From positions 6,674 through 70,673 of the forward strand of contig CAZHYN010000006.1 of assembly GCA_964536865.1 (NCBI GenBank): a DNA stretch of 64,000 nucleotides, in the 5' to 3' direction. The first letter of the stretch is position 1. Each line of letters starts with the position of its first letter. The position numbers and the translations under genes were made by a program. A model generated the notes under the pieces. That model made no database searches. It saw only the letters and a list, made by a program, of their open reading frames with translations, and was not told the origin of the DNA. Positions 53,050-53,494 of this stretch are shown here, one piece after another. Source of the DNA: an uncultured Planctomycetia bacterium (lineage in GTDB: Bacteria > Omnitrophota > Gorgyraeia > Duberdicusellales > 4484-171).

Positions 53050-53126
53050 TTTAAATTTTCGCGGGGTGGAGCAGCCAGGTAGCTCGTCAGGCTCATAACC
53101 TGAAGGTCGGCCGTTCAAATCGGCCC
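53050..53126 (+). tRNA. tRNA-Met (anticodon CAU), initiator-type (C1xA72 mismatch), CCA encoded
   Basis: Near-identical in architecture to bacterial tRNA-fMet: cgcgggg...ctCATaa...ttcaaat...ccccgcaACCA. Confidence 0.85.
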
Positions 53127-53243
53127 CCCGCAACCATTTCTATTAATCTTAATCTATGTTATGTAATCTTTATCTCGCTTACTATGCAAAAGCAATTTTG
53201 GATGCAATAAATAAAAGACTCCGCCTCTGGCGGAGATTGCATA

Positions 53244-53264
53244 CAAATCGGCCCCCCGCAACCA
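53244..53264 (+). repeat. 21-nt perfect copy of the tRNA-fMet 3' end (T-loop C56 through CCA), preceded by a 7-bp hairpin
   Basis: caaatcggccccccgcaacca is identical to 53106-53126. ctccgcc-tct-ggcggag (53221-53237) abuts it upstream. It lies 138 bp from the original. Confidence 0.85.
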
Positions 53265-53361
53265 TCTAAATTTCTACCCGAGCTTTAAGAGATACTACTT
53301 TTATATTATAGGCGAGCGTAATTTTGATGTGATAAATATGTGAACGTTTCAACTTAGGGAA

Positions 53362-53378
53362 GGTTGCACACAAATCAC
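53362..53378 (+). repeat. Degenerate third copy of the junction unit (ttgcaCacaaatc), lacking the tRNA-derived part
   Basis: Shares ttgca[t/c]acaaatc with the junction at 53236-53249. It lies 128 bp downstream of copy 2. Confidence 0.3.
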
Positions 53379-53494
53379 TTATCTATAACTCCTCCTTAAT
53401 ATTTTTTTTATCTTGTTGATATTTTTTAGTTAAGTTAAAGAGAGAGTAAAAAAATATTGCTTTTAATAAAGGATTTTGTTAAAATTTAAACTAA

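Follow-up and report, generated by a model that had tools for sequence, protein, structure and literature searches.

Miniature folded units at tRNA-fragment repeats in Omnitrophota: candidate gene-less integrative elements that target tRNA loops

Direct repeats of a tRNA end, with crossovers in the T-loop or the anticodon loop, are classic for tyrosine integrases, and islands and prophages of this kind are bounded by a repeated tRNA segment, regenerate an intact tRNA and form arrays when the regenerated site is used again. Decayed elements (cis-mobilizable elements, CIMEs), which keep the repeats as att sites and lack recombination genes (PMC5704250), have been documented to accrete in tandem at tRNA genes (PMC5704250; PMC3146451), and tandem ssrA islands have been described (PMC3146451). 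In other systems the attachment site is a fold: integron attC sites are imperfect palindromes defined by structure, with constant unpaired bases and a variable sequence; integrative mobile elements exploiting Xer (IMEX) of the CTX-phi type integrate, effectively irreversibly, through a folded hairpin; and in IS200/IS605 elements four bases at the hairpin foot are complementary to four target bases by the junction and change with the target. Here we report that a stretch of 64,000 nt from an uncultured bacterium of the Omnitrophota (GenBank assembly GCA_964536865.1, contig CAZHYN010000006.1, positions 6,674 to 70,673; hereafter the window) carries, at its tRNA-fMet and tRNA-Phe genes, units that share features with each of these systems. 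They resemble tRNA-targeting islands in their tRNA-segment repeats, intact tRNA, loop crossover and arrays, and CIMEs in keeping repeats in the absence of genes. Unlike such islands, they measure 125-135 bp instead of kilobases, are uniform in size and have no integrase gene inside or next to them, and, unlike both islands and CIMEs, their attachment region is a covarying folded module with a foot that pairs with the target bases. The feature is real and non-trivial, and it is best filed as miniature, structure-specified, tRNA-loop-targeting integrative elements in Omnitrophota; it is with moderate confidence that we read the units as miniature integrative elements of about 125-135 bp that carry no genes and are non-autonomous, with a folded attC-like site and a tRNA-loop target.

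The initiator tRNA-Met(CAT), which carries the C1/A72 mismatch, stands at the head of the first array with an encoded CCA, as an initial annotation of this DNA had it and as ARAGORN and Rfam bear out. The last 21 nt of the gene, CAAATCGGCCCCCCGCAACCA, which start at C56 of the T-loop directly after T54 and T55, recur downstream as a perfect copy, at an offset of 128 nt and not the 138 first given. These are the only two exact occurrences in the window, there are no others at up to three mismatches, and matches arose in 0/100 shuffles with three mismatches allowed; both lie in the Met array. The hairpin that had been placed right before the copy (CTCCGCC-TCT-GGCGGAG, 53219-53235) is real, but 8 nt, ATTGCATA, separate it from the repeat, and it is merely the inner part of a conserved structure of 46-58 nt, the foot of which pairs with tRNA bases 56-59. 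The last four nucleotides of this module (CAAA) are at the same time bases 56-59 of the displaced tRNA end, and the module DNA folds with -19.4 kcal/mol (z = -4.1). A third, decayed unit was likewise proposed, and the block AGrTTGCAyACAAATC is indeed shared, but the tRNA end is absent there, the region is unfolded (z = +1.2), the covariance model described below (R1) gives no match, and the degenerate module is joined, past CAAATC, to non-tRNA DNA. The whole of its homology to Met unit 1 consists of two blocks, TTTTGATGTGATAAATA at 53322-53338 (82% identity, offset 125) and AGGTTGCACACAAATC at 53361-53376 (14/16, or 88%, matching 53234-53249, offset 127). Repetition extends to the unit itself and not to the tRNA end alone; unit 2 as a tandem copy of unit 1 does not hold up, with about 35 nt of the module region alignable and the hairpin decayed.

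At tRNA-Phe the start of the repeat at C56 holds as well, in two successive downstream units that end in 18-nt tRNA fragments, and a further unit is placed upstream of the gene as the mirror image of the 3' units. Here the displaced piece is the 5' half of the tRNA, 36/36 identical to 34322-34357, with a native promoter-like site (34141-34168, from a promoter scan) directly ahead of it; the CAGT of the adjoining module is the antisense of tRNA bases 31-34, and the flanking region folds with z = -8. Direct repeats are of three lengths: at Met 21 nt, encoded CCA included, and at Phe 18 nt (twice), lacking CCA, and 36 nt for the 5' half. The block of identity begins at C56 in every 3' unit and stops at G34 in the 5' unit. 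None of the tRNA-Phe copies is followed by CCA, and they were therefore copied from DNA and not from a mature tRNA, which rules out an origin by reverse transcription of the latter. Since the length of the repeat (18, 21 or 36 nt) tracks the distance from loop to gene end, a target-site duplication made by a transposase is unlikely, and this relation fits selection for restoration of the tRNA; direct repeats that span the tRNA gene from a loop position to its end are what tRNA-restoring site-specific integration gives. Simple tandem duplication is ruled out, because the spacers of neighbouring units are unrelated.

All Met and Phe junctions share one plan, X4-G-[7 nt]-(A-rich bulge or hairpin)-hairpin-[7 nt']-A-X4', in which X4' stands for the four tRNA bases that open the repeat: CAAA, CGAC or, on the antisense strand, CAGT. 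The constants are the 4-bp foot with its four target-derived bases and the G/A mismatch; the 7-bp stem changes in sequence from unit to unit and always keeps its pairing, and a hairpin, preceded by the A-rich bulge or a first hairpin, abuts the right arm. Modules of 46-58 nt occur either as a bulged hairpin or as a three-way junction. The target in the tRNA is always TT↓CNNN (the arrow marks the junction), that is, the T-loop between bases 55 and 56, or, in the anticodon loop read on the antisense strand, TTTT↓CAGT, and the foot follows the target: TTTG/CAAA, GTCG/CGAC, ATCG/CGAT (in the related locus L364) and ACTG/CAGT. The sizes of six independent units are 125, 127, 127, 128, 134 and 135 bp, and none of the units contains an ORF (open reading frame), a gene or a pseudogene. 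The coordinates of all features in the window are collected in Table 1.

Table 1. Features of the window that bear on the tRNA-linked units
Feature	Position	Strand	Details
XerD equivalog, 295 aa	5890-6777	+	Pfam Phage_integrase and SAM_1; TIGR02225 384.6 bits (cutoff 329.6)
Displaced 5' copy of tRNA-Phe	34187-34222	+	GT and tRNA bases 1-34, the last being G34 in the anticodon loop; repeat finding
Phe 5' unit module	34219-34276	-	58-nt three-way junction; ACTG-G-ATGTGAT-T-[TTGCCC TTC GGGCAA][CTCCGAC TAAC GTCGGAG]-ATCACAT-A-CAGT
tRNA-Phe(GAA), intact	34324-34396	+	ARAGORN, Rfam; C56 = 34379; no encoded CCA
Phe unit 1 module	34460-34509	+	GTCG-G-ATCCAAC-ATATAAATA-[CTTTGGT TTC ACCAAAG]-GTTGGAT-A-CGAC; fold z = -4.2
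tRNA fragment after Phe unit 1 module	34506-34523	+	18 nt
Phe unit 2 module	34589-34634	+	GTCG-G-AACAAAT-AAGGGAAAA-[TCGCC TTT GGCGA]-ATTTGTT-A-CGAC
tRNA fragment after Phe unit 2 module	34631-34648	+	18 nt
Initiator tRNA-Met(CAT), intact	53060-53136	+	ARAGORN; Rfam tRNA 58.8 bits; encoded CCA
Repeat copy 1	53116-53136	+	C56 to A76 of tRNA-fMet
Met unit 1 spacer	53137-53196	+	60 nt, AT-rich, no ORF
Met unit 1 module	53197-53247	+	TTTG-G-ATGCAAT-AAATAAAAGA-[CTCCGCC TCT GGCGGAG]-ATTGCAT-A-CAAA
Intrinsic-terminator-like site	53209-53235	-	inner hairpin of Met unit 1, then TCTTTTATTT
Repeat copy 2	53244-53264	+	displaced tRNA-fMet 3' end, C56 to CCA; perfect 21-mer
Met unit 2, old and decayed	53265-53376	+	57-nt spacer, then degenerate module TTTTGATGTGAT...GGTTGCACACAAATC, about 53322-53376

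In the window the module occurs at tRNA-fragment junctions only. A search for arms of 12 nt in which position 5 may mismatch freely returned four tRNA-junction sites and two others in the window (shuffled copies gave 0-2), and a strict scan for the G/A form (X4-G-Y7...Y7'-A-X4') over 255 kb, comprising the window and related loci, returned five independent tRNA-junction modules and one other site; a relaxed scan of the architecture was too noisy for use. Three of the modules, those of the window Phe 5' unit and of the related loci L028 and L362, are three-way junctions of exactly 58 nt each. In their alignment 98.6% of the cells are paired and 12 of the 24 pairs have changed on both sides; 0 of 500 shuffles paired as well, and the pairing collapses when the partners are slid by 1-3 columns. 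The covariance model R1, trained solely on these three sequences, was then run over both strands of the whole window with filters off, and its sole unique-site matches at E < 1 are the four tRNA-junction modules: 81.7 bits for the Phe 5' module (itself a training sequence), 39.0 for Met unit 1 (E = 1e-8), 36.3 for Phe unit 1 and 21.6 for Phe unit 2. A model built from three-way junctions thus finds the bulged modules, which places both forms in one family, and the initial suggestion of one mechanism at tRNA-fMet and tRNA-Phe is sustained by this specific retrieval of Met and Phe junction modules with a model from other loci and genomes. Opposite-strand scores are 10-21 bits each (Met unit 1 scores 39.0 on the plus strand versus 15.6 on the minus strand), so that the module has a defined polarity, the tRNA-derived repeat always lying 3' of it. 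Letters conserved on the left side include GGATG..AT, and those on the right side CU.C...G.AG-AT..CATA↓C; the right strand, AGATnnCATA↓C, may bear a loose likeness to a Xer arm ending in CATAA. Unlike the palindromes of repetitive extragenic (REP) or bacterial interspersed mosaic (BIME) elements, or miniature inverted-repeat transposable elements (MITEs), the modules sit solely at four tRNA junctions in 64 kb and the length of the repeat is variable instead of fixed. Rfam 15 matched only the tRNAs and returned nothing else credible with E up to 10; the lack of a match, together with a three-way junction nearly devoid of an unpaired core, led us to reject a small ribozyme such as the hammerhead. 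A serine-recombinase mechanism was set aside because the module has its dyad centre in its interior and not at the junction.

An unlikely alternative is that the units are ordinary decay remnants, namely the attR-proximal ends of conventional integrase-bearing islands or prophages that entered at the tRNA and later lost their interior, and that the hairpin is the int terminator or a sib-like retroregulator beyond attP, as in phage lambda. Repeats of the tRNA end and crossovers in the T-loop and anticodon loop fit tyrosine integrases, the accretion of CIMEs at tRNA genes offers a precedent, and the inner hairpins with the T-run of Met unit 1 and Phe units 1 and 2 score as intrinsic terminators on the minus strand, which is the orientation expected of a transcript crossing attP. 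Against this stand the near-uniform size of the six independent units, which random deletions would not yield, and the lack of gene debris in any of them. Moreover, the outer stem (4+1+7, with the constant G/A mismatch) is more than a terminator would account for, a T-run is missing from the corresponding strand of the Phe 5' unit, and compensatory changes have preserved the module as the spacer and fragment beside it drifted. A full-length relative was also not found in IMG/VR or in phage and plasmid collections. IMG/VR was scanned with six patterns (the Met 21-mer, the 18-mer of Phe, one for the module core and three for generic feet), and nothing linked to a tRNA emerged; GTCGGAT...ATACGACTC gave an excess of palindromic matches, with no tRNA nearby. 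A blastn comparison of the units with the phage and plasmid collections, in line with the earlier proposal to look among mobile elements, came back empty as well, and on these two grounds we rejected a phage or provirus origin.

Comparison across related genomes, also proposed at the outset, shows how the module is maintained. The Met array occurs in three assemblies made independently from the same organism or from near-identical strains (L025 from Logan, L117 from JGI, and L119) and is therefore no assembly artefact, and it is also present in a sister species of about 90% DNA identity (L004; the metagenome-assembled genome (MAG) "Candidatus Omnitrophota bacterium B7_G16", Guaymas, NCBI). Between the window and L004 the module and fragment differ at 0/68 positions, the spacer at 5/60, the upstream DNA at 40/368 (about 11%) and the downstream DNA at 9/37; Met unit 2 of L004 is homologous, but differently decayed or truncated. 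Strain L120 is 99.5% identical to L004 and keeps the tRNA, the spacer and the module, and its foot (...ATACAAA) is joined straight to unrelated DNA. After the CAAA foot of Met unit 1, L120 (4357-4703) and L004 (215-821, minus strand) carry alternative segments of 296 bp, with a 44-aa zinc-ribbon-like ORF, and 556 bp, with the tRNA fragment, the truncated second unit and a remnant of an IS256-like transposase, and the two rejoin at the same TetR promoter. Because both L120 and Met unit 2 of the window join the foot to non-tRNA DNA, 0 or 2 nt past X4', the module foot appears to be a recombination breakpoint.

Units at tRNA-Phe were found in two further Omnitrophota lineages, one unit each, with DgkA 71% and 65-66% identical. 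The first (L028/L029) has GTCG-G-ATGAAAT-[..][..]-ATTTCAT-A-CGAC followed by a perfect 18-nt fragment; the second (L362/L364/L366) has ATCG-G-ATGAAAT-...-A-CGAT/C followed by a decaying fragment, and its tRNA T-loop reads TTCGATT, with the foot ATCG in step. The L028 and L362 modules differ at 9/58 positions, which comprise three compensatory pairs, two changes from wobble to Watson-Crick and one change of the foot (X4), and their spacers of 61-62 nt are unalignable. Within the L362/L364/L366 species the module is invariant, and 3/18 positions of the fragment and 1/61 of the spacer vary. We had considered the combination of an ATCG foot with a CGAC fragment in L362 as proof of a crossover left of base 59, and dropped it, since the L364 fragment reads CGAT and the C in L362 is a later decay. 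In L028 the similarity between the DNA past the tRNA and the DNA past the fragment runs on for about 47 nt at about 80%, so that the piece borne by the element looks like captured host flank. Plain tRNA-fMet genes without units were found in distant Omnitrophota (L001, L012, L014, L018, L019, L022-L024 and L376-L381), in the same enolase-ftsB-tRNA-fMet synteny and often with an ordinary terminator after the tRNA, and a metagenome scan by FtsB alignment retrieved only seven distant loci, with units in none. The distribution of the units is patchy.

A module conserved in place could also be a host-selected RNA element of the tRNA transcript, acting in 3'-trailer or 5'-leader processing, stability or termination, with the copies of the tRNA end as by-products of local duplication. 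The Met, Phe 3' and L028/L362 modules do share the sense strand of the tRNA, from which no plus-strand terminator separates them, the module is constrained in situ, and the two wobble pairs of L028 are both G-T on the module strand. We nevertheless hold this to be improbable, given that the Phe 5' module is opposite in orientation to tRNA transcription, that close Omnitrophota lineages do without the module, that no Rfam family matches it, and that the spacers are unrelated, so that simple tandem duplication cannot explain the arrays. Wobble pairs are, in addition, nearly absent: in five independent modules 53 of the 55 outer-stem pairs are Watson-Crick, and only 2 of 72 cells of alignment A3 are wobbles, whereas RNA helices are usually richer in G-U pairs. 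Because the sequence varies, the fold is constant and the pairs are nearly all Watson-Crick, the module is probably recognized as folded or extruded DNA.

The terminator-like sites on the minus strand also admit a reading in which each unit encodes a small antisense RNA that starts at a promoter in the next spacer, crosses 21 nt that complement the 3' end of the tRNA and stops at the hairpin, and acts on the tRNA or guides a nucleic-acid-targeting enzyme. A promoter-like site lies on the minus strand at 53333-53305, and a 14-nt block, TTAAGAGATACTAC (which includes TAGTAT on the minus strand), is the one part of Met unit 2 to be conserved between L004 and the window. Promoter-like matches are, however, at chance level (3 seen versus 2.1 expected), the outer stem would form solely after read-through, and the T-run is missing from some of the three-way-junction modules, which makes this reading very improbable indeed.

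Returning to miniature integrative elements, we infer from these patterns their mobility, a reaction on folded DNA, an order of insertion and the kind of enzyme, in the following picture. An element would consist of a tRNA piece with host-like flank (together about 75-85 nt, the flank about 50-65 nt) and the module of 46-58 nt; as a circle or tandem unit, the right arm of its module would run into the element's own CNNN and so complete the foot. A recombinase supplied in trans, perhaps an unlinked integrase or the host Xer system, would then exchange strands between ATA↓CNNN of the element and TT↓CNNN of the tRNA loop (between bases 55 and 56 of the T-loop, or in the antisense anticodon loop), with the module as a structure-specified attachment site and X4:X4' pairing as a possible test of homology after the strand swap. 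The tRNA piece of the element would enter the gene and restore the tRNA, and the old tRNA end would stay beyond the module. The restored tRNA could serve as a fresh target, so that successive insertions would stack with the newest adjoining the tRNA. Such repeated use would account for the periodicity of about 128 bp, and growth next to the tRNA for an intact proximal and a decayed distal Met unit; the proposed strand exchange would explain the two orientations at tRNA-Phe and the covariation of foot and target, and secondary-site recombination inside the overlap region would explain the foreign joins of L120 and Met unit 2, 0-2 nt from X4'. In the single-stranded detail of this picture we place less confidence than in the picture as a whole.

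In this proposal the module is like an integron attC site, an imperfect palindrome defined by structure, with constant unpaired bases and variable sequence; its outer stem holds the exchanged bases, an inverted copy of the junction core lies 40-55 nt upstream of each junction, and the arrays are unidirectional with growth at one fixed site. Unlike attC, it has no RYYYAAC/GTTRRRY boxes and its junction reads GGAT...ATA↓CNNN (Phe unit 1 alone happens to hold ATCCAAC/GTTGGAT, and the repeat there starts 8 nt past the G, unlike the attC-type G↓TT); unlike integron cassettes, the units have a tRNA-loop target instead of attI, no ORF but a tRNA-restoring segment, and no IntI nearby. With CTX-phi-type IMEX the units would share a folded-hairpin attachment site, effectively irreversible integration, tandem arrays at a regenerated target and the presence of a host Xer recombinase (XerD); they differ in the tRNA-loop target in place of dif, the single arm-like duplex and the lack of a phage genome. 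With IS200/IS605 they share the four foot bases that are complementary to the target and change with it; unlike those elements, which have hairpins at both ends, TnpA, often TnpB, and no target repeat, they have one module per unit, no tnpA that we found and a repeat of 18-36 nt. The most far-reaching version, a gene-less integron-like insertion system in which the module is folded as a single strand, the 4-nt foot is a re-programmable guide to TT↓CNNN and a host recombinase (such as Xer) or another enzyme acts in trans, is tentative at best and in our view doubtful, even though four guide/target pairs were seen, over two loops and both strands. The architecture was not found described in the searchable literature.

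Several points weigh against miniature integrative elements. The sole recombinase found among the ORFs of the window is the XerD equivalog, 47 kb from the Met locus, and no recombinase is linked to the units; this XerD gene has a housekeeping context, between a metallo-beta-lactamase-fold gene and a gene of the CCA-adding/poly(A) polymerase family, and on it the integron-integrase models TIGR02249 and NF011946 fall below their cutoffs. Insertion by an integrase, as the initial annotation had it, is therefore something that we infer, because no integrase is associated with any unit. No autonomous relative or parent element came to light in IMG/VR or in the phage and plasmid collections, and neither a circular form nor a pair of empty and filled sites for one unit was observed. 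A double-stranded circle of 128 bp is sterically awkward, and a single-stranded or other intermediate must be assumed; the constraint seen on the module in place might just as well stem from a host function; and the Omnitrophota DNA inspected comes to about 0.27 Mb in all, a narrow base for the genome-wide distribution.

If active, the units would be among the smallest site-specific mobile DNAs known, and their attachment site would be a natural one set by a fold and a 4-nt complementary foot instead of a sequence read by a protein, which bears on how integron attC sites and other folded substrates of recombination came about and on tools for programmable insertion. The units would also rewrite parts of essential tRNA genes, either the T-loop and the 3' strand of the acceptor or the entire 5' half with the promoter, and make these places hotspots at which strains of a little-known phylum are rearranged. 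For annotation, they account for arrays of tRNA fragments that otherwise resemble pseudogenes.

The remaining genes of the window are housekeeping genes as far as scanned: Pfam scans took in 51 of the 63 ORFs of at least 100 aa and identified a mur/fts cluster, rnf, enolase, lipopolysaccharide and radical-SAM genes. Six further ORFs (48678-52756) were matched to genes with housekeeping Pfam domains on the near-identical contig L117, one was scanned solely as DgkA, and the five outside the Pfam scans are 61970-63244 and four nested inside larger genes. An 894-aa ORF (53495-56179) that matches no Pfam family at E <= 1e-5 lies directly downstream of the Met array. Between dgkA and a radical-SAM gene resembling spore photoproduct lyase (SPL) lies the gene (35139-38177) for a protein of 1012 aa with an Omp85 domain and, at its N-terminus, an acyltransferase-like domain; dgkA and the radical-SAM gene are adjacent in all related contigs inspected (L026-L030, L362 and L366).

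Other oddities are linked to tRNA genes in the same DNA and its relatives. Another Omnitrophota lineage (FtsB identity 46%) has four hairpin units in tandem upstream of tRNA-fMet (L371, 1612-1896; also in L374), with the form TTTCGC-TT-[stem(s)]-C-GCGAAA, in which TTTCGC is the leader TTT plus tRNA bases 1-3, and with fold z values of -3.3 to -8.8; a sister strain (L372/L373) has a single decayed unit (L372, 1560-1720). They share the logic of an inverted copy of target bases at the foot and a G/A-type mismatch on the minus strand, and may be a separate family, because R1 does not detect them. In L371 a small serine recombinase of 177 aa (2068-2601; Pfam Resolvase, with weak IS607/XisF-like NCBIfam matches) starts 97 nt downstream of tRNA-fMet, and an 86%-identical fragment of its gene remains in L372 (about 2211-2368), the two contigs diverging right after the tRNA 3' end. 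In the window, tRNA-Thr(CGT) (43955-44026) is followed by 27 nt and then by a diverged partial tRNA (..AGATAACTCAGAGGTTCAAATCCTCTCTCCGGCT; window 44027-44075) with a complete T-arm and no module; this debris differs in kind from the units anchored at C56, and directly behind it the gene at 44088 begins. Two of the unit-free loci have other features downstream of tRNA-fMet: in L014 (MAG AUK132; 4740-4900, minus strand) a tandem array of about 150 nt made of 8-nt units (AACGTATA / AACGTGTG variants), about 160 nt away, and in L012 (Omnitrophica 4484_171; 5671-6546) a 291-aa ORF on the opposite strand, 65 nt away, which by eye alone resembles a DDE (rve-type) transposase. Finally, L028 has three copies of a motif of about 42 nt with CAGGGT(T)GACA (-35-like) on both sides of tRNA-Phe (3180-3670), and a conserved promoter about 210 nt from that gene, with no 5' tRNA fragment between.

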